58,488 nt of DNA, filler included, from Candidatus Hydrogenedentota bacterium (GCA_040752395.1; 4 parts of 4 records of this genome joined end to end with filler, not necessarily neighbours in it); one strand, 5' to 3'. Shown: positions 1,091 to 48,285, counted from the first letter of the whole stretch. The notes: generated by a model from the letters alone, not told the origin. A program made the numbers and translations.

Positions 1091-1305
1091 CTCCTCTGAA
1101 AAACATTGTAACTCTAATAATTCGGGCTACAGGCTACAGGCTACGGACTACAGCCGGCTGGAGCCCGAAGCCCGGAGCCTGAAGCCCGGAGCCTGCTGAA
1201 AAGTCTTGAGTCTCGAGTCCTGTTTTGACTCACGACTCTTTTCATATCATCTTTAGTTTTTCATACTTTGTGTAGAGCGCAAACCGCGCTCATGTTGACT
1301 CCTCT
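1091..1305. repeat. Composite SD-anchored intergenic element, copy 1
   Basis: CTCCTCT direct repeat at both ends; nested TGAAAA…TGAAAA…TTTTCA…TTTTCA; GGCTACA/GAGCCCG heptamers; near-identical to 6440-6675 and 41583-41842. Confidence 0.9.
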
Positions 1306-1329
1306 CTATCTCTATCTCTATCTCTTATC

Positions 1330-2130
1330 TTACCAGCAACTCATCCCGCCATCGATAATTAAATTCTGGCCAGTAACATACTGTGAAGCATCAGAAGATA
1401 AATATAAAACGCCGCCAACTATATCATCAGTCATTGCCATACGTCCAAGCGGACACCTATATGAATACTTCTTTACAAAATCTTTGCCCTGCGGATTTTG
1501 TGGATTAAATACTCCGCCAGGCGATACACAGTTTACACGGATACCATATCGGGATAGATGAACAGCATAGTATCGTGTCATCTGAATAATAGCTGCTTTA
1601 GTAGCACCATATACCTCAGAATTCTTTCTTTTGCAATCGGTGTATATTCTATAATCAGGACTTATCACTCCATAGATCGACCCTATGTTGACTATAACAC
1701 CCCTGGTTCTACTTTTAATTAATTCTCTGGCATATTTCTGTATACAAAAGAATGTCCCTTTTAAATTCACATCCATTACCCAATTAAATCTTTTCTCGCT
1801 TCTTTCTAAAAAAGGTTCGAAGGTGCTGGCACCGGCATTGTTGATTAAAACATCGAGCTTTCTATGTTCTCTAAATATCTTCCCAAACATCTTTGAGACA
1901 GATTCCTTTTTCCTGATATCAACAGTATATAGAAACAATGTATCATAAGTATTTGTTAAATTTTTTAAATTTTTCTTGAGGTTTTTAATATCTAAATCTG
2001 CAGCTAATACAATCGCTCCACACTCTAAAAATGTTCCAACTAATGCTTTACCTATCTGTCCAGCAGCACCGGTAATTAAAACCCTCTTCTTTTCAAGATT
2101 GAACAATTTTTCAATATAATTCTTATTCAT
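1330..2130 (-). CDS. SDR family oxidoreductase (PtmA-like, nonulosonate pathway)
   Basis: TGAAGQIG, NNAG and YGATKAA motifs. Confidence 0.9.
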   Translation of the reverse strand: MNKNYIEKLFNLEKKRVLITGAAGQIGKALVGTFLECGAIVLAADLDIKNLKKNLKNLTNTYDTLFLYTVDIRKKESVSKMFGKIFREHRKLDVLINNAGASTFEPFLERSEKRFNWVMDVNLKGTFFCIQKYARELIKSRTRGVIVNIGSIYGVISPDYRIYTDCKRKNSEVYGATKAAIIQMTRYYAVHLSRYGIRVNCVSPGGVFNPQNPQGKDFVKKYSYRCPLGRMAMTDDIVGGVLYLSSDASQYVTGQNLIIDGGMSCW

Positions 2131-2903
2131 ACTTTCTTAATTAAGTTTTTAACCTCTTTAATAATATTAAAAAGAGTATCAATAGATTTATAATACTCTA
2201 TTGTTAAATATTTCACATTATTATAATCTTTTAAAATATCAAGCAACAACTTATAAATTTCATTATCTGGTCTATTGTGATTATCTCTTGCAATACCGTC
2301 TTTAATAGAATATCTGGAAATATGAACCTGTATACACTTTTCTAATGGCAGGTTCTTAATATAGTAATGATAGCTAATCTTTTTATTATATGAGGAGATA
2401 ATGGCATGTGAGATATCAAATAAAAAATTAATTTTGTTATCGTATACGATCTCTAATAAAAAAGAGCTGTCTGTTATTATATCGTATGCTTCTGATGGAT
2501 AATAATTGTTATTTTCAATAGCTATCAATATATCATTGCTTAAAATCTCTTTTAGAATCTTAAGGTTGTCTTTTGCATTTCTTAACATTTCTTTTTTAGT
2601 AAACTTTTTCCCATTAGACTGAAATATACCATTTTTTATAATAGGGTTACTGTAACAGGATGGTATGTGGAAACTGATTAATTTTAAGTCTTTCTTAAAA
2701 TTTTTTATCAGATATAAATGCTTTATCTCTTCGTTTTCTTCCCAGTTTTTAACTATGCTTATATCTGAATGATATAAATATTGACGATTTATATCAGAAT
2801 GAAATGATGCATCTCTGCATTCAAAACAATTGGATATATTGACTACTTTGGCTATCGCTTTTTTATGCCTGAATAAATGAGAAAGCGGAGTAGCAATTAA
2901 CAT
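2127..2903 (-). CDS. TIM-barrel metalloprotein, DUF692/xylose-isomerase-like
   Basis: ENNNYY, FDISHA, QVHIS, RDNH and TIEYY metal-ligand pattern. Confidence 0.55.
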   Translation of the reverse strand: MLIATPLSHLFRHKKAIAKVVNISNCFECRDASFHSDINRQYLYHSDISIVKNWEENEEIKHLYLIKNFKKDLKLISFHIPSCYSNPIIKNGIFQSNGKKFTKKEMLRNAKDNLKILKEILSNDILIAIENNNYYPSEAYDIITDSSFLLEIVYDNKINFLFDISHAIISSYNKKISYHYYIKNLPLEKCIQVHISRYSIKDGIARDNHNRPDNEIYKLLLDILKDYNNVKYLTIEYYKSIDTLFNIIKEVKNLIKKV

Positions 2904-4051
2904 AAAATTTGTCGAAGAGTAGAGATCACATCATCGACATCAGTCTCTGTTAGTTTCGGCGATAAAGGTAAACTTACTGTTGTCTCACCAATATAAAAGC
3001 TATTTGAATAATCTTCTGGTTTCCAACCATATGTTTCTCTGTAATACCTGTGAGTAGGTATACTTCTATAATGCACGCCGATACCGATATTGTGGTCTGT
3101 CATTCTTTTTAAAAATTCATCACGGCATAAACCGCATCTTTTTTTATCAATTAATATTGTATATAAATGCAGAGAATGTTTTGTATTAGCTTCAATAGGG
3201 GAGGGTAGTTCTATGTGTAAATCAGATAAAGCAGAATTGTATCTTTCCCATATCTCTTTCCTCCTCTCCCAGTATTTATCTATTCGTTTTATTTGATGTA
3301 TCCCAAGCGATGCCTGTAAATCTGTCATATTATATTTAAAACCAGGTGATATAACCTCGTAATGTTTAAATCCCTCATCTGAAAACCTTTTCCAGGCATC
3401 CTTGCTCATACCATGCAGGGCAAGGACCTTTATTTTATTCGCATACTCTTCATTATTAGTTATAACCATACCGCCTTCAGCTGTTATAATGTTTTTTGTT
3501 ACATAAAAACTAAAACAACCCATTTCGCCGAACGTCCCTGTCTTTCTGTTTTTATATTCTCCCTCAATCGCATGCGCACAATCCTCAATTATTTTTATAT
3601 TATGTTCTTTTGCTATATCACAAATTTCATCCATATTACAGGGTCTGCCTGCAAAATGAACAGGTAAAATTGCTTTTGTTTTTTTAGTAATTTTTTTTAG
3701 TATTTCAGCTGGATCAATATTCATTGTGTGGCGATCACAATCTGCTAAAACCGGTGTTGCACCTGAATGTATTATAGCATTTATCGTGGCGCAAAACGTC
3801 ATAGGTGTGGTTATCACTTCATCATCTTTCCCTATCCCTGCTGCTAATAATGATAAATGGAGTGCTGCGGTGCAGGAACCTAAAGCAATAGCATATTTTG
3901 CCTTTTTATATTCTCTGAATAATTCCTCAAACCTCGCCACTTTAGGTCCTGTCCCTATCCAGCCTGATTTAAGTGTTTCTAATACCTCGTCTATCTCTTC
4001 TTCCTCAATTAATGGGCTTCCAAAAATTAAAAAATTATTTTTATCTCTCAT
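2897..4051 (-). CDS. DegT/DnrJ/EryC1/StrS PLP-dependent sugar aminotransferase
   Basis: SCTAALHL, IEDCAHA, SFYVTKNIITAEGG, GFKYNMTD. Confidence 0.95.
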   Translation of the reverse strand: MRDKNNFLIFGSPLIEEEEIDEVLETLKSGWIGTGPKVARFEELFREYKKAKYAIALGSCTAALHLSLLAAGIGKDDEVITTPMTFCATINAIIHSGATPVLADCDRHTMNIDPAEILKKITKKTKAILPVHFAGRPCNMDEICDIAKEHNIKIIEDCAHAIEGEYKNRKTGTFGEMGCFSFYVTKNIITAEGGMVITNNEEYANKIKVLALHGMSKDAWKRFSDEGFKHYEVISPGFKYNMTDLQASLGIHQIKRIDKYWERRKEIWERYNSALSDLHIELPSPIEANTKHSLHLYTILIDKKRCGLCRDEFLKRMTDHNIGIGVHYRSIPTHRYYRETYGWKPEDYSNSFYIGETTVSLPLSPKLTETDVDDVISTLRQILC

Positions 4052-4132
4052 TTGGTGCCTTTGTGCCTGTGTAAAATTTATTCAATTGGTATTAATCGGG
4101 GCCGAAACACCCTTTTAATACGTAACGCTACT

Positions 4133-4684
4133 CTATCTTACCTCAAAGATACATAAATCTACTAATCGATTCACACCTAAAAACTTTAACTCTACTTTCA
4201 CCCGATTCTTTCTTTTGTTAATCCCTCTTATTATACCTTCGTAACCCTTTAATGGTCCCTCAATTATCTTTACTATCTCACCCTCTCTGTAAAACCTTGA
4301 TTCCTCGACAATACCCTCCCTGTTTACTAAATCAAAAACTACCTTCATCTCTTCTCTTTCACAGAAAAAAGGACGATCCTCCTTCATAAGAATTTTAATA
4401 AACCCCTGTAATATGCTCTTTTTTCTATATATAGTTTTGCATAAATCAAGATTGTATAAAGAATCATCCTCGCCTTTAATAAATAAATATCCCGGATATA
4501 ATGCCTTGATATTATATAAATACTCGCCTTTCTTCCTTATATATAATTTCCGCCTTGGGAAAAATAGTCTCGCCGGCTCTTTGATTAAATCCAAAAGAAC
4601 ATCTGTTATCCGGCCTTCTTTACCCGCATATGTCTGAATAACAAACCAATTGCTACAGTTATCAGTCATTATATCTATAGCCAT
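4133..4684 (-). CDS. NusG-paralog transcription antiterminator (LoaP/UpxY/RfaH class)
   Basis: NGN domain (WFVIQTYAGKE, LYPGYLF) plus KOW domain (VKIIEGPLKGYEG); directly upstream of the glycan operon. Confidence 0.85.
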   Translation of the reverse strand: MAIDIMTDNCSNWFVIQTYAGKEGRITDVLLDLIKEPARLFFPRRKLYIRKKGEYLYNIKALYPGYLFIKGEDDSLYNLDLCKTIYRKKSILQGFIKILMKEDRPFFCEREEMKVVFDLVNREGIVEESRFYREGEIVKIIEGPLKGYEGIIRGINKRKNRVKVELKFLGVNRLVDLCIFEVR

Positions 4685-5265
4685 ACTATAATACCCTCTT
4701 TATCCATCTCTCTTATATTTTCAGCAATGTAACTTTTCAACAATACGCTGTTTGCAATAATAAGATAATTACTACCTTTATTCTTTTTTTCTATTATTTC
4801 CTGGAAACTGAAAACCTTATAACCTAATTTTTCATTTATTTCTTCTTCATCCTTGATAAATCCTATGAAATTAAAGCCATAATTTTTTACCCCTAAAAAT
4901 ATCATCTCTGCCCAGAGATCCGTACCGTAAATATAAATTTCTCTGCTGTTTACCTGTATCTCATTCAATTTATGAAGTATAATATCCCTCACACTCATAA
5001 AATAATCTATACTGCCTTTTAATATATTATAATTATATCTTAATCTTTCATTAAATCCATAGGGTGTCAGTACATATTTAAGCATTTGCTTATTCTTTAA
5101 TTTTTTTATTTTGATTAATCCTTTTTCTGCTAATTTATTTATAAAAAGATTCACCATTCCAAGAGAGAGATTTAACTCTTTTGCTAAAGCCCTCTGGGTT
5201 ACATTCTCTCTCTTGTATATCTCATTTAGTATCTCGACTTCTTCTCTTCTTATCTCTTCAGTCAT
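4675..5265 (-). CDS. MarR-type winged-HTH regulator, EPS-associated
   Basis: TQRALAKELNLSLGMVN…KGLIK…YVLTPYG; Rossmann-like C-terminal domain. Confidence 0.8.
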   Translation of the reverse strand: MTEEIRREEVEILNEIYKRENVTQRALAKELNLSLGMVNLFINKLAEKGLIKIKKLKNKQMLKYVLTPYGFNERLRYNYNILKGSIDYFMSVRDIILHKLNEIQVNSREIYIYGTDLWAEMIFLGVKNYGFNFIGFIKDEEEINEKLGYKVFSFQEIIEKKNKGSNYLIIANSVLLKSYIAENIREMDKEGIIVWL

Positions 5266-5270
5266 AACGA

Positions 5271-5381
5271 CTCCCTATGAAAAGTCTTTAGTCTCAAGTC
5301 GTAAATCAAAAACTAATGACTCAAGACTGATTTATTGACTCACGACTCTGTGACTTTTAGACTGATTTCATATCATCTCCT
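5271..5381. repeat. SD-anchored intergenic module (GACTC-heptamer type)
   Basis: CTCC at both ends; TGAAAAGTC…GATTTCATATCATCT shared with 1196-1252 and 41667-41743; contains the RBS of the 5265 gene. Confidence 0.75.
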
Positions 5382-5441
5382 ATATCTTGCCTCTACCTAC
5401 CATCTCCTGATGAAAGATAAAATACCCACTGAAAATGGTTT

Positions 5442-5511
5442 CTGTTCAATTATTGAACAGTATATCTATTTTTTTATTTTTGTCAAGTCCAAAATGTTCA
5501 TTTTTTGAACA
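5442..5511 (-). promoter_or_regulatory. Sigma70-type promoter flanked by two TGTTCA-N5-TGAACA operators
   Basis: Minus-strand TTGACA (5481-5486), N16, TATACT (5459-5464); palindromes at 5442-5460 and 5495-5511. Confidence 0.7.
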
Positions 5512-5605
5512 CCCTTATTTTAATATTCACAAAGATTTAGTCAAATAGCTAAGCCCTAAACCAAACAGGCATCATAACCCTTACCCCTTTACCAAATGAT
5601 ACTTC

Positions 5606-6259
5606 TCACTTCTTAGTTCTTACTTTTGTATCCTCTGTCTCCTGTCTCCTGTCTTCTATATATCCTTTAGCTATTAAATATTTCATAATTTTACTCTGTG
5701 ATTCTTCTATTGTCTCATTTTCAGTATCAAGTATAAGTTCAGGGTTTAATGGTTCTTCATAGGGGGCAGAGATACCTGTAAACTCTTTTACTTCACCTCG
5801 CCTTGCCCTGCCCCACAAACCTTTGGTATCCCTCTTTTCACAACACTCTATACTACATCTTACGTAACACTCTATAAAATCACCTTCTTTCACAATCGAC
5901 CTTACTCTATCTCTGTCTTTTCTGTATGGTGATATAAATGCTGTTATTGCGATTATACCTGCATCTACGAATAGTTTTGCCACCTCACCTATGCGTCTTA
6001 TATTTTCTTCTCTATCTTCTTTTGAAAATCCCAAATTTTTATTTAACCCCTGCCTTATATTGTCACCATCAAGCACATAACTTCTCACTCCTCTCTGGAA
6101 AAGTTTTTCTTCAAGTTTGTATGCTATTGTTGTTTTTCCCGAACCCGATAACCCGCTCAACCAGATGATACAGCTTTTATGTCTGTTTGTGTGTTCGCGG
6201 TCGGTGCGTGTAATCGCGCCGTGGTGCCAGAATACATTTGTTGTTCTTGTATCAATCAT
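5606..6259 (-). CDS. cysC: Adenylyl-sulfate (APS) kinase
   Basis: WLSGLSGSGKTT, LDGDNIR, DREENIRR, FTGISAPYEEP. Confidence 0.97.
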   Translation of the reverse strand: MIDTRTTNVFWHHGAITRTDREHTNRHKSCIIWLSGLSGSGKTTIAYKLEEKLFQRGVRSYVLDGDNIRQGLNKNLGFSKEDREENIRRIGEVAKLFVDAGIIAITAFISPYRKDRDRVRSIVKEGDFIECYVRCSIECCEKRDTKGLWGRARRGEVKEFTGISAPYEEPLNPELILDTENETIEESQSKIMKYLIAKGYIEDRRQETEDTKVRTKK

Positions 6260-6266
6260 AATTAAC

Positions 6267-6675
6267 CTCCTCTGAAAAACATTGTAACTATAATAATATC
6301 AAGTAGAAACAAGAAGCAAGAAGCAAGATAAACAAACATCTGGTTTTTCATACGTTGTGTAGAGCGCAAAAACCCAAAAACGCAATAACCCAATAACCCA
6401 ATAACCCAATAGTGTAGAGCGCAAACGCGCTCATGGGTACTCCTCTGAAAAACGCTGTAACTCTAATAATTCGGGGTACAGGCTACAGGCTACGGACTAC
6501 AGCCGGCTGGAGCCCNNNNNNNNNNNNNNNNNNNNNNNNNNNNNNNNNNNNNNNNNNNNNNNNNNNNNNNNNNNNNNNNNNNNNNNNNNNNNNNNNNNNN
6601 NNNNNNNNNNNNNNNGAGTCCTGTTTTGACTCACGACTTGCGACTTGTGACTCACGACTGTTTTTATATCATCTA
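6267..6675. repeat. Two tandem SD-anchored elements sharing a CTCCTCT junction at 6440-6446; spans the scaffold gap
   Basis: AAGCAAG and CAATAAC heptamers; GAGCGC/GCGCTC palindrome; second unit matches 1091-1252. Confidence 0.85.
6516..6615. other. Scaffold gap (100 N) inside a repeat element
   Basis: Both flanks match copy 1 (about 1140-1230). Confidence 0.95.
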
Positions 6676-8004
6676 CTTCTTGCTTCTTGCTTCTATTATA
6701 TCACCATAGAGATCCAAACCATTGCTATCTGTAATTTTGACTTTTATAAATTTGTCAATATATTCCTCTGAAAAATTATTATCTATTACAACACATCCTT
6801 CTATTTCAGGTGCATTGCGGTAGCATCTGCCAACAAGTTCTTCTCCAACCTTCCTCTCAACCAACACCTCTATCTCTTCCCCTATCATCTTTTTCTGTAG
6901 TTTATCTTCAATCTTGAATTGAATATTTCTCGCTACATCATATCTTTTCTCGATCTCTTTTTTAGATATCTTGTTTTTATAGTTAGCTGAGACCGTACCC
7001 TCTTCTCTGGAATAAGGAAAAAATGTTATTCTATCAAGTTTTGCTTCATTTAAAAAATCTAAAAGTCTTTCAAATAATTTAGAAGTCTCATAGGGATGAC
7101 CCACTATTAAACTCGTTTTTATATAACTATCATCAAAATTAGCCCTTATCTTATTTATTAAATTTAAAAATATAGTTTTATCACCTTCTCTATTCATTAA
7201 TCTTAACATCTTTTTTTCAGAATGCTGAAGAGGTATATCAAAATACGGATATATCTTTTTATTCTCTTTTATTAAATATATTAACTCATCATCGATATCC
7301 TGCCAGAAGCCGTATAAAAATCTTATTCTAAAATCTCCATTTAGTATTGTTAAATCTTTTAGCAAATTTTTAAAGTTATAATCTTTATATCTATCAACGC
7401 CGTAATTTGTGGTCTCCTGTCCAACCAATATTAATTCTTTTATCCCCGAGTTTATCATTATCTTCGCTTCTTGAATTATTATCTCTTTTTTTCTGCTTCT
7501 ATATCCACCTTTTAACTCAGGTATTTTACAGAACGCGCATTTTCGTGAGCATCCCTCTGATATCTTTATATAATGATACAATTCAGTTTCTCGAATTGGT
7601 GTTTGTAACGGCTTATTATACAAATATCCTCTCACATTAAAATCACTTCTGGTTCTACCTTTTGTTATATCAACAATTTTATCAATCTCCCCTGTCCCTG
7701 AAATAGAATCTATTTCTGGTATCTCTTTTATTAACTCATCTTTATAATATTGTGGCAAACACCCTGTAACAATGAGTTTCTTGATTTTACCTCTGTTTTT
7801 TAATTCACCATATTCAAGTATTGTATCAATTGATTCCTGTCTTGCTTGTTCAATAAAAGAGCAGGTATTTATAATGATTATGTCTGATTTATTAATATCT
7901 CCTGTAATTTCATAGCCATTGCTAATTAATATCTCTCTTAATGTAGCTGTATCAACCTCATTTCTTACACAACCGAGTGTCTCTATAAAAACCCTACTCT
8001 TCAC
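6673..8004 (-). CDS. rimO: Ribosomal protein S12 methylthiotransferase
   Basis: LGCVRNEVD, NTCSFIEQARQESID, EGCSRKCAFC, C-terminal TRAM domain (NAPEIEG). Confidence 0.92.
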   Translation of the reverse strand: MKSRVFIETLGCVRNEVDTATLREILISNGYEITGDINKSDIIIINTCSFIEQARQESIDTILEYGELKNRGKIKKLIVTGCLPQYYKDELIKEIPEIDSISGTGEIDKIVDITKGRTRSDFNVRGYLYNKPLQTPIRETELYHYIKISEGCSRKCAFCKIPELKGGYRSRKKEIIIQEAKIMINSGIKELILVGQETTNYGVDRYKDYNFKNLLKDLTILNGDFRIRFLYGFWQDIDDELIYLIKENKKIYPYFDIPLQHSEKKMLRLMNREGDKTIFLNLINKIRANFDDSYIKTSLIVGHPYETSKLFERLLDFLNEAKLDRITFFPYSREEGTVSANYKNKISKKEIEKRYDVARNIQFKIEDKLQKKMIGEEIEVLVERKVGEELVGRCYRNAPEIEGCVVIDNNFSEEYIDKFIKVKITDSNGLDLYGDIIEARSKK

Positions 8005-8663
8005 TTTATTTCTACTATCTCCTTATCCTTTGTATCCAGTTTAAATTTACTCGGCTTAATTTCAGTAAAGATTACAAAATCTTTTATTATTGCTTCAATT
8101 GGTCTATCATTATTACCATTTATATATATATCAATTTTTTTGATGATCAAATCTTCAGTGATTAATACCTTAATTTTTTTTATCTCGTCTTGTTCATCTG
8201 GTATCAATAAAATTTCAAAAAAATTATTTTTTTTAAAATAACTGACATTATATTCTTTTTCGAGTGGTTCGTTTAAGATACCTATAAATATTTTAAAATC
8301 TCTACTTGTAAAAAGCTCTTTATCTACTTTTTGTACATAGATATATTTATCGCCTTTAGTATTAGTAAAAATATTTTCTCCATCACATACAGTGATAACA
8401 GTTTGTAATCCTGATTTATATTCGGTTCTAAAAAAATAGGGTTTCTGAAAGAGTAGTTTTAATTTTACAATCTCATACCTATCTTCTTGATGCAACTTAT
8501 CTTTTAGCGGAATTTTTATATTTGCTACTATTGAAAAGACTTTTATATCTTTTTTAAAAGCCTCGAACTTATCAATTATTGAGACTTCTTCTGCAAACAA
8601 AAAAGAATTAAAAATTAAAAAGTAAATAATAAAAAATAATAATCTATAACTCACAACTCTCAA
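8001..8663 (-). CDS. LolA-like outer-membrane lipoprotein carrier protein
   Basis: Signal peptide; FQKPYFFRTEY…VCDGENI pattern; adjacent to rimO. Confidence 0.7.
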   Translation of the reverse strand: MRVVSYRLLFFIIYFLIFNSFLFAEEVSIIDKFEAFKKDIKVFSIVANIKIPLKDKLHQEDRYEIVKLKLLFQKPYFFRTEYKSGLQTVITVCDGENIFTNTKGDKYIYVQKVDKELFTSRDFKIFIGILNEPLEKEYNVSYFKKNNFFEILLIPDEQDEIKKIKVLITEDLIIKKIDIYINGNNDRPIEAIIKDFVIFTEIKPSKFKLDTKDKEIVEIK

Positions 8664-8707
8664 CTTGTTAACTCACAACTGATTTATGAAGTCTTTTTTA
8701 GTAAAGC

Positions 8708-8935
8708 CTCAGAACGTGTGAAATAATCATCATTAATACCAGGTAACTCTTTTATTATCACTCCCTGTTTTCTAAAAAAGTCTAATTTTTTCACACGTTC
8801 TCAGTTATAGGTGGAATTGTAATTCCTCAGTCTTCGGTGGAAACCCTACTGCCATTAGGCACAAAGTAGCAAAGGCAAAAGAGGCACAAAGAAGAAAAAA
8901 CTTTGTGCCTTTGTCACTCTGTGCCTTTGTGCCTC
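8708..8935. mobile_element. CTCAG-bounded MITE-like unit followed by related partial units and an AGGCACAA/TTGTGCCT palindromic block
   Basis: CTCAG-AACGTGTGAAA…TTTCACACGTT-CTCAG (8708-8804); same ends at 24515-24651 and 46707-46738. Confidence 0.7.
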
Positions 8936-8953
8936 AAACCAAAAGAGACCTCT

Positions 8954-10390: not shown

Positions 10391-10394
10391 AAAA

Positions 10395-10635: not shown

Positions 10636-10735
10636 NNNNNNNNNNNNNNNNNNNNNNNNNNNNNNNNNNNNNNNNNNNNTTAATTAATTAANNNNNNNNN
10701 NNNNNNNNNNNNNNNNNNNNNNNNNNNNNNNNNNN
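10636..10735. other. Artificial contig-joining linker
   Basis: N44-TTAATTAATTAA-N44, which has stops in all six frames. Confidence 0.97.
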
Positions 10736-38544: not shown

Positions 38545-38664
38545 TGAAATAATTCCTCCTTTACACGGTGTCAGGCATTGAATTATTAAAGTTATTAAAA
38601 TCGTGACGGTTCTTATTTTCAGTTTGTTAAACGAATCAATAAAAATACTCATAGCAAATTCCTG

Positions 38665-39392: not shown

Positions 39393-39404
39393 AGCAAATT
39401 CCTG

Positions 39405-40562: not shown

Positions 40563-40590
40563 AATAAAACCTCTTATGACGACTTAGAAG

Positions 40591-41031
40591 TTAAGACCAA
40601 AAATCGGGTTCTGAATAATAACAATCCACAATCCATTTACCGTCATTGGCAGGATTGGGAATTATTTTGTGCGACCTGGGTTCCACAACAAAATCCATCT
40701 CCTCTAAAACCAGGTATCCTATTAACGGCGGCGTGGTCCCGTCATTTTCCATTACATCCATTTGTATAGTCCGACCATTTATAGTTATAGCTGCAACTGA
40801 GAAAATCCGTCTTTTTACAATCCCATTTGCAGTTTTTACGGGTTTGGTATCGGTATGTAATAATCCGAGATTCTCTATTACTTTTGGCGGCAGACATAAA
40901 TATGCCGCTCCGGTATCCACAATCGCATCCACCTCCACCTTTCTTATTTTCCCTTTTTTAAGAATCCCTTCTTTGTTTTTTAAAATATCACCGAAATTTT
41001 TTAGAATTACTTTCTGATATGTTTTACCCAT
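40591..41031 (-). CDS. Retropepsin-like (clan AA) aspartic protease
   Basis: IVDTGAAYL, LIGYLVLE. Confidence 0.85.
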   Translation of the reverse strand: MGKTYQKVILKNFGDILKNKEGILKKGKIRKVEVDAIVDTGAAYLCLPPKVIENLGLLHTDTKPVKTANGIVKRRIFSVAAITINGRTIQMDVMENDGTTPPLIGYLVLEEMDFVVEPRSHKIIPNPANDGKWIVDCYYSEPDFWS

Positions 41032-41057
41032 TGACTAATTACTCCTCTGAAAAGTCT

Positions 41058-41198
41058 CTAGTGGCTTGTGACATAAATTTCAGCACATTGTCATTCCCCG
41101 GCTTGACCGTGAAATCTAGTAAAAGCGTATGGATTCCCGCTTTCGCGGGAATGACATAAAAAAATCTACGGTCAGAAATTAATGTCACAATGTTCTAG
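41058..41198. mobile_element. CTAG-flanked MITE-like element enclosing a GTCATTCCC…GGGAATGAC palindrome
   Basis: TIR TTGTGACATAAATTTC (41066-41081) / GAAATTAATGTCACAA (41175-41190); core 41090-41155. Confidence 0.75.
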
Positions 41199-41572
41199 AA
41201 TGTTCGTAATTGCTTCAATCTTACCGCAGGAAGACGTTTCAGTCGTTGATTTTGAGGATCAATCTCAATGCCTACTGACTCTAATGCTGTTACCCCAAGA
41301 ATCGGTTCTACGTCGTCTTTGCCGAAAATTACCGTTGCTCCAACAAATTCTCCCATAAATTCTATCTTTGCAACCGCGATATCTAAGGCTACTTCAGTTC
41401 CGTCTGCCAACTCATACGTTCGTTTACCTTCGGGTTTTATACCTAAATCTCTGAGTTTATTGCCCGGAACTATGCAATCAATGGCTCCTGTATCAACCAA
41501 AAATAATCCTTCATAGCGACGTTCTGAATCTGCCGGATTACAAACCGCAGCCGTTACTTTTGTAATTCCCAT
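41195..41572 (-). CDS. Retropepsin-like (clan AA) aspartic protease
   Basis: LVDTGAID, LADG, ILGVTALE. Confidence 0.88.
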   Translation of the reverse strand: MGITKVTAAVCNPADSERRYEGLFLVDTGAIDCIVPGNKLRDLGIKPEGKRTYELADGTEVALDIAVAKIEFMGEFVGATVIFGKDDVEPILGVTALESVGIEIDPQNQRLKRLPAVRLKQLRTF

Positions 41573-41582
41573 TGCTTTAATC

Positions 41583-41975
41583 CTCCTCTGAAAAACGCTG
41601 TAACTCTAATAATTCGGGGTACAGGCTACGGACTACAGCCAGCTGGAGCAAAAAGCCCAAAGCCTGCTGAAAAGTCTTGAGTCTTGAGTCTCGAGTCCTG
41701 TTTTGACTCACGACTTGCGACTTGTGACTCTTTTCATATCATCTTTAGTTTTTCATATATTGTGTAGAGCGCAAAAACGCAAGAACGCAATAACCCAAGA
41801 ACGCAATAGTGTAGAGCGCAAAGTGCGCTCATGAGTACTCCTTCGAACAAGTTCGAAGTTCGGAGTTCAAAGCTCGGAGCTCGGATCTATTATTACGAAC
41901 TCCTAACCCCTATCTTTTTCATACTTTGTGCCTCTGTGCCTACTCTGAAAAGTAAGAAGTAAGAAGTGAGAAGCA
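41583..41975. repeat. Stack of SD-anchored modules with at least five different short-repeat types
   Basis: 41583-41842 is homologous to 1091-1305; then GAAGTTC/GGAGCTC, TTGTGCCT and AAGAAGT blocks delimited by GAAAA/TTTTCA. Confidence 0.85.
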
Positions 41976-42344
41976 TCAGAAAATAGAAGCAAGAAGCATA
42001 GGTAAAGGTTTTAATTGGCGTTTCAGCGGATCAAGAATTAAACCTAAAGCTTCAAGCGTAAAAGCGCCGAGAAGCGTGCTGTCGTCATGTTCGCCGAAAA
42101 TAACGTCAGCACCGCCGATTTTATCCTGATACTTAAAGAGCGCTATCCCTTTCTTCCTTTTTATAATCTCTCCGTTTGCCAGTCTGAATTCTTCTTCAGC
42201 TAAAGGCTTAATCCCGAGTTTCTTTAAAATATTGCGAGGAACCACAGAATAAATCGCGCCGGAATCAACTAAAAAATCCACGGTTTCAGTAACCTCGGGT
42301 TTCGCCGGGTTGCCTACTTCAATTTTTAAAATCGTAAGTCCCAT
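41976..42344 (-). CDS. Retropepsin-like (clan AA) aspartic protease
   Basis: LVDSGAIYS, LANG, LLGAFTLE. Confidence 0.88.
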   Translation of the reverse strand: MGLTILKIEVGNPAKPEVTETVDFLVDSGAIYSVVPRNILKKLGIKPLAEEEFRLANGEIIKRKKGIALFKYQDKIGGADVIFGEHDDSTLLGAFTLEALGLILDPLKRQLKPLPMLLASIF

Positions 42345-42409
42345 TTTCTTGCCTCCAAAAAACTGTTAATTAACACTTCCCAAAGCAACAACACCTAAAA
42401 TCAGTTTTG

Positions 42410-42688
42410 TTAAGACTTTCTGCTTGTTTTGGGCAGAGTTTTATCTAAAGTATCTTTAATTTTATGCTCTATACCTTCTTTGAGCATAACAGATACTACT
42501 CGATAATGCTCAGCAATCACCTGTATAGGTGTCCAGTCTTTTAAAGCCCGTCCGTTCCATGCCCAATGAAGTAATGTATGCGCAAATTTTATTTGTCTGG
42601 GATTCTTAATCTCCATAGGGTTTGGAACCTTCACTTTTTTTAGTTCTGAAGGTTTGTAGTTTCTAATCTTTGGCTTTTTACCTTTCAT
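42410..42688 (-). CDS. Small basic hypothetical protein
   Basis: 92-aa ORF with a strong GAGGAGG SD lying inside a repeat module. Confidence 0.6.
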   Translation of the reverse strand: MKGKKPKIRNYKPSELKKVKVPNPMEIKNPRQIKFAHTLLHWAWNGRALKDWTPIQVIAEHYRVVSVMLKEGIEHKIKDTLDKTLPKTSRKS

Positions 42689-42789
42689 TTAATAATACCT
42701 CCTCTGAAAAACATTCTAACTCTAATGATATCAAGTAGAAGCAAGATAACGGAAAAAGAAAGAAGTAAGAAGTTTGGGTTTAGTTAGTT

Positions 42790-43824
42790 TCAGTGGTCAG
42801 CAATATACTTTTCTGCTTCTTTTTTTAAATCAGTATCAGGATATCTTTTAAGTAGTTCTTTATACATATATTTTGCTTTTTCTGTTTCGTTGTTTTTGTC
42901 ATAATATTTAGCCAGGGTTTCAATCGCTGTCATCTGGTAATAACTCATATCTTTTGATTCTACTAAATCACTATAATACTTTACTGCTTCTTCTATTCTG
43001 TTTTTACTTTCAAGTATTTTAGCTAATTTAAAGATTGCTTCAGAGTAGTACTTACCTTCTGGATAAGATACAACGTACATTTCCAGAGTCATTAATAAAT
43101 CTTTTTCTAACTTCAACACATCATAACAGCTTGTTATAGTGTATAGTGCTTCCTCTGCTTCTTCATATTCTTTAGTTAAATTGTTAAATGCCTCTCTTAA
43201 CTCAAGCACGGCCTCTGCCGGATTATCCTTTAGTTTAATCATACCATTATAATATGCCTGCAATCCTTTAGCTATAGGTCCTGTAGAATATATCTCTAAT
43301 TCATCAACAACTTTTTTCAGGGTCTCATAATCCTTTCTTTTTAATAATACTGCTGCTTTTAGTTTTAAGACGTCTTTAATCAATTTTGATGTCGGATAAT
43401 TTTTAACAAATAAATCGCAGGCATTCATAAAAGAATCTATCTGGTTTAATTTTTCATAACATACAATTTTCAGATATGGTGTTAAATCTTTATATTTAAA
43501 ATCCGAATAATTTTCCTCAAAATTTGTCAATTTGGTCAGTGCGTCTTTGTATTTTTTCTTCATTAATAATCCCTGGATCAGGCCGAGTTCTGCTCCTGCA
43601 TTTAAGTTGCTTACGGGATATGCTTTTATAAATTTCTCATATCCTTCAACGCCTTTGTCATACTCTGCCTTTTTTAATTGTTTTTCATATCTGACATAAC
43701 TTTTTTCTTCGTAACATCCAGTAATTAGCAAGAGGCAAGAAGCGAGGAGCAAGAAGCAAGATATTTGTTGCCTTTTCTTGCCTCTTGCATCCTTTGTTAT
43801 CTTGCTTCTTTCGTTATCTTGCAT
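42790..43824 (-). CDS. TPR-repeat lipoprotein (BamD/YbgF-like repeats)
   Basis: Lipobox ITGC; YP-S/YPEG/YPDT TPR turns; probable ATG at 43824 after GAGGTG. Confidence 0.8.
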   Translation of the reverse strand: MQDNERSKITKDARGKKRQQISCFLLLASCLLLITGCYEEKSYVRYEKQLKKAEYDKGVEGYEKFIKAYPVSNLNAGAELGLIQGLLMKKKYKDALTKLTNFEENYSDFKYKDLTPYLKIVCYEKLNQIDSFMNACDLFVKNYPTSKLIKDVLKLKAAVLLKRKDYETLKKVVDELEIYSTGPIAKGLQAYYNGMIKLKDNPAEAVLELREAFNNLTKEYEEAEEALYTITSCYDVLKLEKDLLMTLEMYVVSYPEGKYYSEAIFKLAKILESKNRIEEAVKYYSDLVESKDMSYYQMTAIETLAKYYDKNNETEKAKYMYKELLKRYPDTDLKKEAEKYIADH

Positions 43825-43890
43825 CTTGCTCACCTCTTTTTTGTCTCTTTTACCTCTCTTCTTGATCTTGCATCTTGCCTCTTTCGTTAT

Positions 43891-46518
43891 CTAAAATATC
43901 CTTTGAAGATTTACACTGAATATATCAGCTTTATAATCAAGTTCTGATGATGCCGGTATGTATTTGTCTTTTGAATACTTATATTTTAATAATATAGTAC
44001 TCGTCGATGAAAAATAGTATTGTGCGGTTAAACCATATTCATCCTTGTCTTCTTTCTGAGACGTTGAGTTTATGCGCATAATATTAAACTCTCCTTTTAA
44101 TCTGAATTTACCAGGAAACATATTGTAATCTATGTTCCCGGTATAAAATTCGCTATTCTGTTTAGTAGTCGTAAATTTTATTTTTAAGCTGTTATACGTA
44201 AAAAAAGCAGTTACATTCTTTATCTGTGAAGATGATAAAGTCAGCATCCAGCCATCGCTCTCAAATGAGCTTCTTGTGGTTGTAGTAGAATATAAATTCT
44301 TATCTTTATAATCTGTATTTATAAACATAACACCTATGGAATTTTTTGCGAAAGGCTGCGTCAATCCAATCCAGAATGTAGTATTAGTAATATCAACTTC
44401 CTGAATAGTTGAGGTTGGGTCTTTTGATCGGTTCGAATCATCTTTACGGTAATTATATCCTGCATTAAAAAATGGTAGTTTCTTTCCTATTCTGAAAGAT
44501 AGATTCGTATATAGTTCATCAGTATTGGTCTTGTAGCTCAATTTATGATTCAAATCATTATGATATATTTTATATTCATAATTAAAATTATATTTTTCTT
44601 TAAATACATAACTCTGTTTCAAATAAATGCCCTCTCTGTCTTTTATTGATTTAATACTTAAATTACCTGCATCATCAAAATCCGGGTTAATGCGCTCATA
44701 AGTTAGTTTTGATTTAATCGATTTTATCCTGTGGTTTACTACAACGTTTCCTGCATAATCAGACAATTTTCTGTCAAATGCGCTTCGGACATCGTTATCG
44801 TATAGAGAGCGAGCAAGCTCAGTATGTAGCTCTGTTCTTCCAGTAGGTGAACTCAATCTTCCGTCAATGCTCCACACATAATTTTTTAGCGGTTTCACGC
44901 TTGTCCCTGCATCAGCTATGGAATTTTCATCATCTTCAACAAGTATCAGGCTTGAATTGAAATATGTATAATATGTTGGTTTAGTAACTAATCGCAAGCC
45001 GTAACCGAATTGCTCATAAACGCCATAGGTTGCGAAATCACCGTTCTGAAATGGTATCCTCTCATTTAAGCCCACAGGTCTTGCAAGTCTTCCAGCTACG
45101 ACAGACAAATCTATCTGATTGAAGTTCCTTGTATCTCTTCCTTTTAGTCTATAAAATTCAGCAAGATTAAACTGGTTCTTTGTTACCAGAGCAATGTCAT
45201 CAGGTGATAATCTGTATAAGGCTTTTCTTCTGAATAAATAATCGATCTGAACTCCTCTCATACTCCTATTGTACAACGTATAAGGCGTAAACCTCGGATA
45301 TATATCACCAAAATTAAACTCTAAATTATCTCTATGTATCTCTATTGCAATGGTTTTAGCCTCCCATTTGTCCCAATTGTCATAACCAAGATTTAGATTC
45401 ATTGAGAAATTTGTTCCAAAACTCCTGCCGATGGCAACTAATTCTAGTGCTTCAGCTGAACCAGGTATTAAATTAACAATTTTCCGATTATCTATATCGA
45501 TATATCTGTAGGTAAATCCCATAGAGCCACGAAACTCAGGTGCAAATGTTTTAAGAAATGATACTTTCTTCTTTTCTTTTGTTGGTTCTATGACTTTTTC
45601 TTCTTTTGGTCTGAAAGTTTTGAATCTGAATGTTGAGTCAATTCTGTGTGTTGTACCTATGTCACCATAAGGTACGTATGCATAAGCTATCTCTAAATTC
45701 TCTGTCTTAAACCCTATGCCACCAGTTAATGCGTCTTTCTTTTCACCGTCATAATTTATCCTGTATCCTGCTCTTAAACATAATAAATCATTGAGCCAGA
45801 ATTCAGCCCCGAGATTCTCTCTGAATTTTTTATCGCCTTTTTCTTTTAAGAAATCACAGGCCGCAGTAAACCTGCGGCCTGGGCTAATATAAGATACTCC
45901 ATAAACCTGCATTTCAGGTAAAGGATCGCCTTCCTGAATAAATTTGATATCCCCGGAGATATTTCGGAACGCCACCCCTACCCTGAAATGCGGCTCAAAT
46001 GGCAAAGTAAATAAGAGACCTGCATCATATGATATTGTAGAATCTTTATATGTATAGAGCTTCTGTTGAACCCATTTCACAGTCCCACCTAAAGATATGC
46101 TATCCATTACTTTAAACCCTAAAGATAAATTAGCTGCGAAATCTGTATTGTGAAATGGGTATAATGTTTGGGTTTGAGTTCTCACCTCATCCTCTGTACG
46201 CGATAAAATAAAACTCGTTTGTAATCCTATGCTCTTTGTTAATGACACACCATAACCAAGATAGTTATATTTCGTTGCACCTAAATATTCCATATGTAGA
46301 GCGGTTATTTCATGCTTTGTTAGATATGGCAGGCCTGCGGGATTATAGAAAGCACCGATACCGCCTTCAGCTACGCCGGTATAAGCCTCACCCATACCCG
46401 AGGCTCGTGCACCCACACCAATGGTCAAAAATCGTGCTGAAGTAGTTCCGACGCCAGCACTGGTTTTAGACTGGAGTAATACTAAAAATATACTCCCAAT
46501 AATCAAACTTTTTTTCAA
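43891..46518 (-). CDS. PorV/PorQ-like barrel domain fused to a second large beta-barrel domain
   Basis: FLTIGVGARASGMGEA…YNPAGL…LRAGY…YAYVPYGDIGTTHR; C-terminal Phe. Confidence 0.75.
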   Translation of the reverse strand: MKKSLIIGSIFLVLLQSKTSAGVGTTSARFLTIGVGARASGMGEAYTGVAEGGIGAFYNPAGLPYLTKHEITALHMEYLGATKYNYLGYGVSLTKSIGLQTSFILSRTEDEVRTQTQTLYPFHNTDFAANLSLGFKVMDSISLGGTVKWVQQKLYTYKDSTISYDAGLLFTLPFEPHFRVGVAFRNISGDIKFIQEGDPLPEMQVYGVSYISPGRRFTAACDFLKEKGDKKFRENLGAEFWLNDLLCLRAGYRINYDGEKKDALTGGIGFKTENLEIAYAYVPYGDIGTTHRIDSTFRFKTFRPKEEKVIEPTKEKKKVSFLKTFAPEFRGSMGFTYRYIDIDNRKIVNLIPGSAEALELVAIGRSFGTNFSMNLNLGYDNWDKWEAKTIAIEIHRDNLEFNFGDIYPRFTPYTLYNRSMRGVQIDYLFRRKALYRLSPDDIALVTKNQFNLAEFYRLKGRDTRNFNQIDLSVVAGRLARPVGLNERIPFQNGDFATYGVYEQFGYGLRLVTKPTYYTYFNSSLILVEDDENSIADAGTSVKPLKNYVWSIDGRLSSPTGRTELHTELARSLYDNDVRSAFDRKLSDYAGNVVVNHRIKSIKSKLTYERINPDFDDAGNLSIKSIKDREGIYLKQSYVFKEKYNFNYEYKIYHNDLNHKLSYKTNTDELYTNLSFRIGKKLPFFNAGYNYRKDDSNRSKDPTSTIQEVDITNTTFWIGLTQPFAKNSIGVMFINTDYKDKNLYSTTTTRSSFESDGWMLTLSSSQIKNVTAFFTYNSLKIKFTTTKQNSEFYTGNIDYNMFPGKFRLKGEFNIMRINSTSQKEDKDEYGLTAQYYFSSTSTILLKYKYSKDKYIPASSELDYKADIFSVNLQRIF

Positions 46519-46629
46519 TTTTTGCTCCGGGGCACTTAAGTAAACCCACGCGCCTGGCCGCCGCGTGTGGGTAAAATTATCTGTATCTATCTACAATATT
46601 ATTATACATTTCTAATATTCAGTCAAATA

Positions 46630-46741
46630 TTTTTTAAGAGTCTAAAGTCTAAAGAACAGCTCTTGTGACCCTCTTTACATTATATTGATTATATTGAAAT
46701 TACAAAGTGCTCACTACAATTTTTTCACACGTTCTGAGGGA
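46630..46741. repeat. Repeat block: inverted copy of about 24718-24780 fused to a MITE right end
   Basis: 46661-46706 is the exact reverse complement of 24718-24763; GTGCTCACTACAATTTTTTCACACGTTCTGAGGG is also at 24620-24653. Confidence 0.85.
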
Positions 46742-47755
46742 TTACATTTTTACTTTATTAAGAATATAACCTATATAAAATGAAACTATTATTAAAAATA
46801 AATAGATACCCAAAGCTGTAAAACGGTTAACCTGGACTATACATAAAGCAAGTAAACCAAAACCCGTTTCTAATAAATAGAATAAATTTACGATTGTATT
46901 TTTATCCATACCTGATTTAAGCATCCGCAAACCAAGATGGTCAGGACTGCCAAGTAGTATTGATTTTCCTTGAGAAAATCGCAAGATTATAACATAAATC
47001 GTATCATAAAGCGGGATACCTAATATTAGAAGCGGGATAAAAAAGCCTAAATCGTTGACTTTAGTATAACTCATCTCCAGACTCATAATACCAAAGACGA
47101 CACCAAGAAATAAACTACCTGTATTACCCATATAAATTTTAGCATCTCTATAATTATATGTGAGAAACCCAAGAAGACTTAAAGCAAGAAAAATAGCTGT
47201 GATCGATAAAAAATAATTATCAGAGAGAATCCCGAGTAAACTGAAAGTTATTGCAATAATTACAGAGACACCGGCTGCTAAACCATCCATTATATCTATA
47301 ATATTTATCGAATTTATAACACCTATAAGCCAGAATATAGATAAAACTATGTTTAGCCAGTACGGAAACATTACCAATCTCATTCTTATATCTATTTTTA
47401 TTATTATTACAAAAATAATTACAAGTTCTAATATAAGTTTTGTTATTGCCTTTAAATGTTTTATATCATCAATTATTCCTATAATAGTTATATATATCCC
47501 ACTATATAATAATGCATTAAAATAATTCGTAGTTCGTTCATCTTTTAGTTTCAAATTAATAAATAAATAGATGATTGTCACAAGGAAAGTAATGATAAAA
47601 CTCAAACCACCGATTGTAGGTACTGGTTTTTTATGGGTTTTAAGCTTATCATCTGGTATATCAAGAATGCGATATTTATAAAATGTTTTTATAAATATAT
47701 TTGTCAGTATGAGGCTTATAAAAAAATTTAAAATGCTAATAATAATATAAATCAT
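46742..47755 (-). CDS. wecA: Undecaprenyl-phosphate GlcNAc-1-phosphate transferase (WecA/TagO, MraY family)
   Basis: HKKPVPTIGG, GIIDD, NIIDIMDGLA, IYMGNTGS, DHL. Confidence 0.85.
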   Translation of the reverse strand: MIYIIISILNFFISLILTNIFIKTFYKYRILDIPDDKLKTHKKPVPTIGGLSFIITFLVTIIYLFINLKLKDERTTNYFNALLYSGIYITIIGIIDDIKHLKAITKLILELVIIFVIIIKIDIRMRLVMFPYWLNIVLSIFWLIGVINSINIIDIMDGLAAGVSVIIAITFSLLGILSDNYFLSITAIFLALSLLGFLTYNYRDAKIYMGNTGSLFLGVVFGIMSLEMSYTKVNDLGFFIPLLILGIPLYDTIYVIILRFSQGKSILLGSPDHLGLRMLKSGMDKNTIVNLFYLLETGFGLLALCIVQVNRFTALGIYLFLIIVSFYIGYILNKVKM

Positions 47756-48049
47756 AACTTACCAAATATAGGTATTACATTGAAATAGTCTATATTTAAG
47801 CCCTCATGGTTCAATGGTATAGCATTAAAAAAAGCATCTTTCAGGGCTGATTTTTGAAACAAAGATATTGTGCATCTGCAATTTATATGAAACGGTGGCA
47901 GAATTTTCAATATGGTTTCATCATTAAAATCAATATACTTACAATGTATGTGTTTACAAAGGCTGCAGGTTTGAAAATCATCAAATGAGATATAAACAAA
48001 GACATATTCATCACCCTGTTTTATAGTTTCTTTTAATGCTAGCAATTTT
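47752..48049 (-). CDS. 5'-truncated protein with a CxxC…PPFHINCRC (MuF-like) motif
   Basis: TCSLC and LPPFHINCRC; runs into the contig end. Confidence 0.5.
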
Positions 48050-48149
48050 NNNNNNNNNNNNNNNNNNNNNNNNNNNNNNNNNNNNNNNNNNNNTTAATTA
48101 ATTAANNNNNNNNNNNNNNNNNNNNNNNNNNNNNNNNNNNNNNNNNNNN
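48050..48149. other. Artificial contig-joining linker
   Basis: N44-TTAATTAATTAA-N44. Confidence 0.97.
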
Positions 48150-48285
48150 AGTTTTTCATCCTTTGTGTAGAACGCAAAAACGCAATAACCCAATAACACA
48201 AGAACCCAATAACACAATAGTGTAGAGCGCAACCCGCGCTTATGTTGACTCCTTCGAAAAAGTAAGAAGTAAGAAGTATCAGAAA
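48150..48285. repeat. SD-anchored element (CAATAAC-type plus AAGAAGT block), cut by the contig end
   Basis: Homologous to 6342-6446 and 41748-41845. Confidence 0.85.

Follow-up and report, generated by a model that had tools for sequence, protein, structure and literature searches.

Intergenic regions within a 58,488-nucleotide (nt) stretch of DNA from Candidatus Hydrogenedentota bacterium (GCA_040752395.1), referred to as the window in the following, contain recurrent modular elements whose right ends coincide with the ribosome-binding sites (RBS) of genes at unrelated loci. This observation is real and lies far beyond chance, and the units are non-coding and orientation-specific. Four building blocks were distinguished, namely the right box R bearing a Shine-Dalgarno (SD) sequence, the GC hairpin box H, the left box L and the variable interior X. 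The elements represent a variant of known RBS-bearing mosaic intergenic repeats such as REP2 of Neisseria, the MIRUs and BIME-like sequences. With moderate confidence, they are interpreted here as a genome-specific family of non-coding, non-autonomous mosaic units in mRNA leaders and intercistronic spacers, which would be gained and lost as blocks at an SD-type box. The window has a G+C content of 32.5% and is a pseudomolecule of four contigs joined by linkers (44 N, TTAATTAATTAA, 44 N) at 10636-10735, 37607-37706 and 48050-48149, across which adjacency is artificial.

The core of the R box, TTTTCAGAGGAG, was found in seven exact copies (positions 1091, 6267, 6440, 10482, 41042, 41583 and 42699), all on the minus strand like the genes next to them. 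Allowing up to one mismatch, ten matches were obtained versus 0.45 expected, a number reached in none of 100 shuffles, and the variant TTTTCATAGGGAG was detected at 5271. Read in gene direction, the R box corresponds to CCCGAATTATTAGAGTTACA(AT|GC)GTTTTTCAGAGGAG, also written ...ATTAGAGTTACA(AT/GC)GTTTTTCAGAGGAG, the last six bases of which form a strong SD sequence. GCG stands in place of ATG in three of the seven R boxes, and a second subtype with another 5' half is placed after CTTGCTT arrays. Long R boxes represent the RBS of neuB and cysC (7 nt to the ATG in both cases), of two genes encoding retropepsin-like proteases (10 nt each) and of a 92-aa open reading frame (ORF; 10 nt), and shorter right ends those of a winged helix-turn-helix (wHTH) gene (5 nt to the ATG) and of a FkbM methyltransferase gene (9 nt). 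The original prediction had named the right ends as RBS of exactly these seven genes, which was confirmed with distances of 5-10 nt to the ATG, and had listed ten positions with recurring ends, at all of which the corresponding motifs are present. The right end at 6440 is followed by the ATG of the hairpin box itself and that at 10482 by another dyad module; site 48150 is a contig start within an element.

Copies at unrelated loci are 78-96% alike across 76 nt, differ by indels of 7, 14, 21 and 47 nt, and lose their identity directly after GAGGAG in eight of eight right ends. The SD sequence is weak or absent at most other genes of the window. All exact R cores (7/7) and all H heads (7/7) are co-directional with the genes, on three separately assembled contigs and on a public contig, L001, described below. 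Furthermore, an SD-like box is also present at the left edge of all five complete composite units; a unit edged in this way on both sides could be removed and would leave a normal RBS. A direct repeat CTCCTCT, also part of the original prediction, was found at 1091-1097 and 1299-1305 and again at 6267 and 6440, the latter position being the R box that the tandem units E4a and E4b (6260-6672) have in common. Nested TGAAAA/TTTTCA pairs and dyads of 7/8-mers were likewise seen in the elements as predicted, and no target-site duplications were seen at the inner TGAAAA/TTTTCA pairs of the window elements.

The H box is composed of an SD-like [AG]AGGAG, 5 nt, AT(G/A), a GC hairpin of 6-7 bp (GAGCGC-loop-GCGCTC) and TACAC, with an octamer array and a second GCGCTCTACAC in three of four copies. 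The latter sequence, which forms the head of the box, yielded 7 matches versus 0.14 expected, and on the plus strand all four complete H boxes read (T)GTAGAGCGC-loop-GCGCT(C/T). The L box has the form AA.(G/T)TATGAAAAAC, in which TGAAAAAC is the complement of GTTTTTCA in the R box; TATGAAAAAC occurs in four exact copies (0.62 expected), three within elements and one inside an ORF at 43680. Four exact matches to the linker AGATGATATGAAA were counted, including one at the true start of the gene at 18135. A looser left-end 13-mer gave 11 matches at up to two mismatches versus 6.0 expected, which is not significant, and one of its four exact copies lies at a true gene start (18128). Among the interiors, complementary heptamers form long imperfect hairpins of two types (GAGTCNN/NNGACTC and GGCTYCR/YGTAGCC), and AAGCAAG, ACTTCTT and TTCGAAC arrays also occur. 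The modules follow the order SD-H-L-(interiors)-R-gene in E1 (1084-1329) and E5 (41573-41975), and R-H-L-X-R-cysC in E4.

Among the 36 period-7/8 arrays of the window, 23 are located in the 8.2% of bases that are intergenic (p = 9e-17), and some extend into ORF ends. In cysC, CAGGAGA and AAGAAGT arrays (5606-5660) encode the C-terminal ~39 residues of the product, the APS-kinase domain ending at residue 178 of 217. Moreover, a heptamer dyad encodes the N-terminus of a TPR lipoprotein ORF (43690-43833), its GCAAGAT-type arm specifying a K/R-rich region and its TCTTGCT-type arm a hydrophobic core with a lipobox-like LITGC end. This N-terminus would represent either repeat DNA co-opted as a signal peptide or a mis-called start.

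Of six long elements folded as a whole, four reached z-scores between -2 and -6, and the dyads fold with z-scores of -3 to -6. G-U pairs in eight heptamer dyads are more frequent on the sense strand (26) than on the antisense strand (6), which fits either transcription and folding in gene sense or a C-to-T bias on the non-template strand. Sense transcription is implied in both cases. The window units are presumably transcribed and folded in the sense RNA; z-scores for sense versus antisense folding of whole elements were mixed. No terminator-like sites were found in the elements except for one weak match on the opposite strand (41676-41695). Small protein genes were rejected as an explanation of the elements, as ORF frames and lengths vary among copies.

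In order to locate further copies, an R pattern of 22 nt was searched in public genome contigs, and the matches listed were on one contig, L001. No matches were obtained for a 24-nt R pattern in JGI metagenome contigs or for the R pattern in viral contigs, and none by blastn against plasmids and phages. An H pattern was detected at 86 loci of metagenome contigs (GC 45-72%), mostly representing one conserved coding sequence, and none of the 86 extends into an element. Screening of the window against Rfam 15 returned a tRNA and a sub-threshold FtrB match on an unrelated inverted-repeat element, with no match in the elements described here. No element of the same grammar was listed in searches of an open-access library of papers. 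For an 875-aa protein encoded in the window, no relative of more than 33% identity was found among 5.8 billion proteins.

The contig L001 (G001:C128; 2.2 kb) belongs to the public metagenome-assembled genome (MAG) G001 and begins inside an element. Its L box, GGCT dyad and R box are 95-97% identical to those of the window, the R box being located 9 nt before a small ORF, and the whole GAGTC module is missing. G001 is distant from the window organism (RimO 38% identical; malic enzyme not found with the query used), and the window-type R 14-mer occurs only once in it, its other contigs carrying only the G-type box introduced below. It is therefore likely that L001 was mis-binned and stems from a co-occurring, window-like organism.

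A look-alike family, termed G-type, was found in G001 and in the close relatives G004 and G006, which are draft assemblies with flanks 92-99% identical at the loci compared. Intergenic regions of G001 are full of heptamer/octamer dyads, and the intergenic enrichment of tandem 7-nt units also holds for 40.8 kb of its loci. The repeated box TATTTTCAGGAGAA gave 48 matches at up to one mismatch versus 4 for the reversed control. Considering the 38 sites in the fetched G001 loci, 15 are followed by N5-6, A[TG-stem-loop-stem-CA]CAA, N6-9 and ATGAAAAT, five by the start of an ORF of at least 145 aa located 2-5 nt further on, and 18 by other sequence, several of the last group being one-mismatch variants inside genes. 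All seven G001 clusters examined show the arrangement (R-H-L-X)n-R followed by a long ORF at distances of 2, 4, 4, 5, 23, 25 and 34 nt, and in two cases within the G-type family the L box itself provides the start codon of the gene. G-type copies read TTGTG-stem-loop-stem-CAT and their clusters run head to tail. The pattern R-N4-7-ATG-N11-20-YACA matched 14, 95 and 99 times in G001, G004 and G006, respectively, versus zero for the reversed control, and at most once in each of the other 397 of 400 genomes searched. Rfam 15 matches in seven loci of these genomes were limited to RNase P, tRNA and two chance miRNA matches.

The H stems of this family covary. Among 24 distinct G-type units of 51-55 nt, five stem pairs are paired to 94.2% versus 70.2% after shuffling (0 of 500 shuffles as high), with 26 double-change cells versus 9.5 in shuffles and values of 21-51% for slid controls. 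Furthermore, L and R remain complementary in both families through two compensating changes, the pairs being TGAAAAAC/GTTTTTCA for the window and TGAAAATA/TATTTTCA for G001. The grammar common to both families consists of an SD-bearing R box, N5-6, an ATG-footed hairpin, a CA-rich foot, an ATGAAAA left box, a variable interior, a further R box and the gene; in the window, E4b, E1, E5 and E9 match the G-type order. The link between the two families is one of architecture, for which common descent, transfer and convergence are all possible.

Apart from these units, (AGTAGAG)n/(CTCTACT)n dyads were observed at approximately 45 loci of G001 (92 BLAST matches on both strands), for example at L108 (G001:C18, ~17660-17870). 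At many of these loci the CTCTACT arm adjoins the SD sequence of the next gene. One such dyad begins right after a promoter-like TTGCCT-17-TATAGT and carries AGGGAG-N4-ATGAAAAT in its loop.

Evidence for gain or loss of units was sought at four G006 loci compared with G004, all belonging to the G-type family and not to that of the window, and two of them were informative. The first locus has the same last junction and the same gene in both genomes, with flanks of 98% and 97% identity; it comprises 1010 nt with six R boxes plus a degenerate one in G006 and 552 nt with two in G004. At the second locus, the empty form in G004 (C167, around 10.13 kb) reads ...GAAACGGAGAATAGGAGAA|AGAAGAATCAAAAAAT..., and the filled form in G006 (C1, around 73.8 kb) carries three H-L-X-R units of ~400 nt in total exactly at the bar, ending in CTATTTTCAGGAGAA. 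A single copy of the 8-nt box AGGAGAAA marks the empty form, and in the filled form each end of the insert carries one. Since target and insert end share only 7-8 nt, ordinary homologous recombination is argued against. The original prediction of an element that inserts at the SD sequence and regenerates it is thereby borne out in part: blocks differ at an SD-type box, single when empty and doubled when filled, but this applies to the look-alike family, and no enzyme could be linked to it. At the G004 locus empty of R-H-L units (L213, G004:C167 ~9940-10130), (GCAGARGG)n arrays and, flanked by two copies of GAAACGGAGAATAGGAGAA, (TCCGAATRG)n arrays are present; gain between direct repeats of the purine box may thus extend to arrays on their own.

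Based on these comparisons, the following course is proposed for the block gain and loss of mosaic units. Successive units, always co-directional with the next gene, are arranged head to tail and joined at a common SD box, and the last R box provides the RBS of that gene. Whole blocks would be gained or lost at the SD-type purine box; the box at the end of an incoming block would regenerate the RBS, and the downstream gene would stay translatable. Interiors would change in length by 7-nt slippage. The agent of gain and loss may be an unseen enzyme acting on the hairpin beside the junction or microhomology-mediated template switching. By analogy, the window's own family may move like the G-type family.

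Several results weigh against this interpretation. Two covariance models built from the 24 G-type units, R1 with 51 positions and R2 with 32, were searched against the window without filters; at E <= 10 they missed all four H boxes and returned only partial matches confined to R (42687-42711, E 2.6; 6433-6452, E 9); moreover, the RimO protein of the window is only 36-39% identical to that of every genome of G001's phylum. For these reasons, the likeness of the two families is restricted to design. In the sampled clusters of G004 and G006, a long ORF starts within 70 nt of the last R box in only four of nine cases, and the RBS rule is accordingly not universal. Only two of the four G006/G004 loci are informative, the others offering one flank only or flanks on two contigs, and repeats can be mis-assembled in draft assemblies such as these. 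The block difference could also reflect precise loss instead of gain, and the empty site described belongs to the G-type family, not to that of the window. Finally, the sense/antisense excess of G-U pairs could stem from strand-biased C-to-T mutation and not from selection on RNA structure.

True site-specific insertion is a somewhat unlikely alternative, in which a trans-acting recombinase or transposase encoded elsewhere would read the hairpin beside the junction and integrate H-L-X-R units into the SD-type core, perhaps in circular or single-stranded form. The 8-nt box that brackets the filled site, too short a stretch of shared sequence for ordinary homologous recombination, is in line with such a system, as are the conserved feet and freely covarying stems of the hairpin and the approximately 100 copies per genome in G004 and G006, a number that is REP/BIME-like. 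Sites recognised by structure, such as REP, IS200/IS605 ends and attC, show this combination of conserved feet and covarying stems. However, none of the 40 ORFs scanned in the window encodes a transposase or recombinase, as had been stated from the outset, and the inserted block is devoid of terminal inverted repeats. Y1_Tnp genes occur in 18 of 25 genomes of G001's phylum with or without the element, many of these genomes being element-free, and no R box was found in the flanks of the 12 best loci. G001 itself contains two Y1 fragments without flanking hairpins, and its sole IS110-type (PF01548) match is a fragment at a contig end that is unlinked to the elements.

The proposed resemblance to IS110/IS1111-type ends did not hold beyond short A/T-rich inverted repeats. 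IS110/IS1111 elements possess short subterminal inverted repeats and insert at a specific short sequence, the target being kept. In contrast, the inverted repeats of the window are 8-nt A/T runs, and no DEDD transposase bounded by the ends was found in the window or in G001. It also appears improbable that the enzyme-less, hairpin-defined units constitute operon-compatible mobile DNA that rebuilds an SD box at its own 3' end, is moved by a structure-recognising enzyme and follows a design common to unrelated uncultured lineages.

A further explanation, likewise considered unlikely, regards the elements as immobile, cis-acting RNA leaders under selection. In this case, the stacked hairpins would serve to stabilise mRNA or to process polycistronic transcripts, and translation initiation would be supplied in portable form by the R box. 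Its ATG variant would correspond to a natural bicistronic design with a mini-ORF running through the SD sequence up to the start of the gene, and copies would arise only via local duplication, slippage and gene conversion. The strict sense orientation and the G-U asymmetry of the dyads (26 versus 6) agree with this view, and heptamer arrays just 5' of start codons are known from other bacteria (PMC4679880). Regarding translation, an ORF beginning MFFRG crosses the SD sequence in all three gene-adjacent copies of the ACAATG-variant R box. At neuB and the 92-aa ORF, its stop overlaps the start codon of the gene as ATGA (2/3), and in the third case (1/3) it terminates at a TAA 2 nt before the cysC ATG; the whole E4b unit is bridged by two mini-ORFs leading from the upstream SD sequence to cysC. 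Such a relay resembles the coupling described for MIRUs and engineered bicistronic cassettes. The probability of the three stop/start couplings arising by chance is estimated at roughly 0.01-0.04. The evidence for a relay is weak in view of the three GCG-variant R boxes, which contain no ATG, and of the common A at +4, found in 34 of 53 window genes. Furthermore, the frame of the H-box ORFs is not conserved, the downstream genes share nothing, and an empty site with only 8 nt in common with the insert is hard to obtain by gene conversion. A role of the hairpin stack as an insulator of the SD sequence was rejected: the probability of the SD sequence being unpaired was 0.77, 0.27, 0.10, 0.19 and 0.38, versus 0.52, 0.37, 0.23, 0.14 and 0.37 with shuffled upstream sequence, and accessibility exceeded this control in only one of the five cases.

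A main role of the R box as a repeated promoter cassette, with the SD sequence as a passenger, is very improbable: a TACAAT hexamer does lie 7 nt before the SD sequence in the ACAATG variant, and the REP2 repeats of Neisseria are described with promoter, RBS and ATG (PMC3184786), but none of 81 sigma-70-like sites (regions 1-10635 and 40500-48049) falls within any R box, the hexamer is TACAGC in three of seven copies, the -35 position would lie in hypervariable heptamers, and several elements reside within operon-like strings of genes.

The interpretation as mosaic units gained and lost in blocks can be placed among known systems. REP2 of Neisseria and IR-A/IR-B of Borrelia are repeated intergenic elements of 120-150 bp with internal stem-loops (Delihas 2011, PMC3184786). 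They come closest in position and effect, as repeats that bring an RBS and an ATG to unrelated genes. REP2 is, however, described there with a promoter, whereas the R boxes of the window contain no promoter-like site, and it is not presented there as modular, tandemly stacked or built of heptamers. In the window, the ATG following the last R box belongs to the gene, and an element-borne ATG occurs only in the H box. In behaviour, the MIRUs are closest. According to PMC12548453 and PMC3184786, they are tandem units of 40-100 bp that reside inside operons in one orientation, are thought to be mobile and to enter gene starts without stopping downstream translation or causing polar damage, and show empty and filled sites and short direct repeats. 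MIRUs are set apart by expression via an ORF coupled at -4 nt, the window unit ending in a full SD sequence, and by interiors free of heptamer arrays.

With respect to build, the mosaic REP/BIME sequences with their short GC palindromes and compensatory stems are closest (Nunvar 2010, PMC2817692). The plus strand of the H box (TGTAG-AGCGC-loop-GCGCT) matches a REP head of the GTAG/GTG type as listed among the REP forms in Table 1 of that paper. REP/BIME palindromes are described as alternating and mostly located at 3' ends, whereas the H heads point one way in 7/7 cases, G-type clusters run head to tail, and H boxes lie at gene starts together with an SD sequence. A rayt gene flanked by hairpins, the trait of RAYT systems, was not found in the window, in G001 or at the 12 best Y1_Tnp loci of the phylum. 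The BOX elements of Streptococcus pneumoniae share the modular build (boxA-(boxB)n-boxC), variable length, co-transcription and ORF potential (Croucher 2011, PMC3049150). BOX ORFs are said there to have no good SD sequence, unlike the SD-bearing window units, and BOX elements have terminal inverted repeats and target-site duplications with no anchoring to start codons.

Long simple-sequence repeats have been treated by Mrazek 2007, as cited in PMC4679880. The same paper (MacGregor 2015) describes the TAACTGA heptamer repeats of Beggiatoaceae, cyanobacteria and Bacteroidetes, of which 169 of 170 sets are direct repeats with one heptamer being dominant. Similar to the window arrays, these are intergenic tandem heptamers, often a few nt before start codons, with 7-nt steps between strains. 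In the window, many heptamers and octamers occur in complementary pairs that form long hairpins, and they constitute only the interior of units carrying R, H and L. That paper gives no known mechanism of spread and leaves the occurrence of identical heptamer arrays before unrelated genes unexplained. A candidate route would be for the arrays to be carried inside larger units entering at the SD sequence. If the interpretation is correct, an uncultured lineage would hold a copy-and-paste stock of strong RBS and structured leaders, a natural counterpart to engineered portable RBS and bicistronic cassettes, and selfish or semi-selfish DNA would have colonised the last bases before start codons without polar damage.

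The individual elements, which lie on the minus strand unless stated otherwise, are composed as follows. E1 (1084-1329) is a composite element between an SDR gene and neuB, the ATG of which is located at 1083. In its 5' part, (GATAGA)n is followed by the SD-like AGAGGAG (1299-1305) and an H box with the GAGCGC hairpin (1270-1298); the middle comprises the L box TATGAAAAAC (1256-1265), the linker AGATGATATGAAA (1240-1252) and a GAGTC/GACTC heptamer dyad (1196-1250); and the 3' part consists of a GGCTYCR/GGCTGTA heptamer dyad (1127-1195) and the R/S box (1091-1126), followed by 7 nt. E2 (5266-5400) lies in the 5' leader of the wHTH gene and contains the left end AGGAGATGATATGAAA, a GAGTC-type dyad and the right end GACTTTTCATAGGGAG (5271-5286), located 5 nt before the ATG at 5265. 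A strong, near-consensus sigma-70-like, promoter-like site (TTGACA-16-TATACT, 5486-5459) lies upstream of E2, which would consequently be transcribed as a leader.

The tandem elements E4a and E4b (6260-6672) separate rimO and cysC (ATG at 6259). E4a includes an AAGCAAG array, a left end and a GAGTC dyad (6616-6672), a gap of 100 N (6516-6615), a GGCT dyad (6476-6515) and the R box at 6440-6475. E4b comprises an H box, a (CAATAACC)n octamer array, a second GCGCTCTACAC and an L box (6343-6439), followed by a CTTGCTT array and the R box at 6267-6302, 7 nt before the cysC ATG. E8 (10391-10635) precedes the malic-enzyme gene and contains a GGCT-type dyad, the R box at 10482-10515, ATGATAAGTT and a second GGCT dyad, the last heptamers of which merge into the gene's own SD sequence (CCAGGAGG); the element is cut by the contig end at 10635. 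The sole plus-strand copy is the short right end before the FkbM gene (24833-24869), consisting of (ACTTTTG)n GACTTGTCATAGGAG and 9 nt preceding the ATG at 24870.

Another short right end, GACTTTTCAGAGGAG (41032-41056), lies 10 nt before the ATG of the retropepsin-like gene at 40591-41031. It is itself preceded by an unrelated inverted-repeat element of 137 nt (41054-41190), with long arms around a GGGAAT/ATTCCC hairpin, a fold of -42.6 kcal/mol and the sub-threshold Rfam match to FtrB (E 0.13). The composite E5 (41573-41975) is located between two retropepsin-like genes, the ATG at 41572 following 10 nt after the R box. It is composed of ACTTCTT arrays with a degenerate right end (41940-41975), an L-like box (41916-41930), a TTCGAA-type dyad (41836-41905), the SD-like GAAGGAG, an H box, octamer array and L box (41748-41847), a linker with a GAGTC dyad (41664-41747), a GGCT dyad (41619-41663) and the GCG variant of the R box (41583-41618). 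E6 (42689-42789), preceding the 92-aa ORF, contains ACTTCTT and CTTGCTT arrays and the R-box variant TTAGAATG (42699-42734), located 10 nt before the ATG at 42688. Downstream of a tRNA gene, E9 (48150-48322) carries an ACTTCTT array, the R-like TTTTTCGAAGGAG, an H box with ATA at the start codon position, an octamer array and an L box, and is cut by the contig start at 48150.

Repeats fragment short-read assemblies, and three of the four assembly breaks of the window (6516-6615, 10636-10735 and 48050-48149) lie within or border on repeat elements; the remaining one, at 37607-37706, falls between a gene of the glycan cluster described below and a HicB-like gene. Besides breaking assemblies, such repeats matter for binning, with one element-bearing contig residing in a MAG of another lineage.

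A second, unrelated repeat of the window possesses 18-nt terminal inverted repeats, CAGAACGTGTGAAAAAAT, with five ends found versus 0.02 expected. Its complete, MITE-like copies are located at 8710-8802 (93 nt) and 24517-24649 (133 nt), a solo end at 46719-46736, and related flanking repeats at 24441-24519 and 27655-27773. The region 37707-42344 is densely occupied by small genes of defence-like or selfish appearance, including HicA/HicB-like genes, two pairs of a HEPN gene and its partner, duplicates of 76% identity, and a run of four paralogous genes for retropepsin-like aspartic proteases. Moreover, a 27-kb glycan cluster encoded on one strand (10791-37606) comprises three genes for B12-binding radical SAM proteins, CMP-sugar cytidylyltransferases, a sulfotransferase, FkbM and other methyltransferases, and its neighbouring contig carries neuB, an aminotransferase gene and an MbnB/TglH-like gene.

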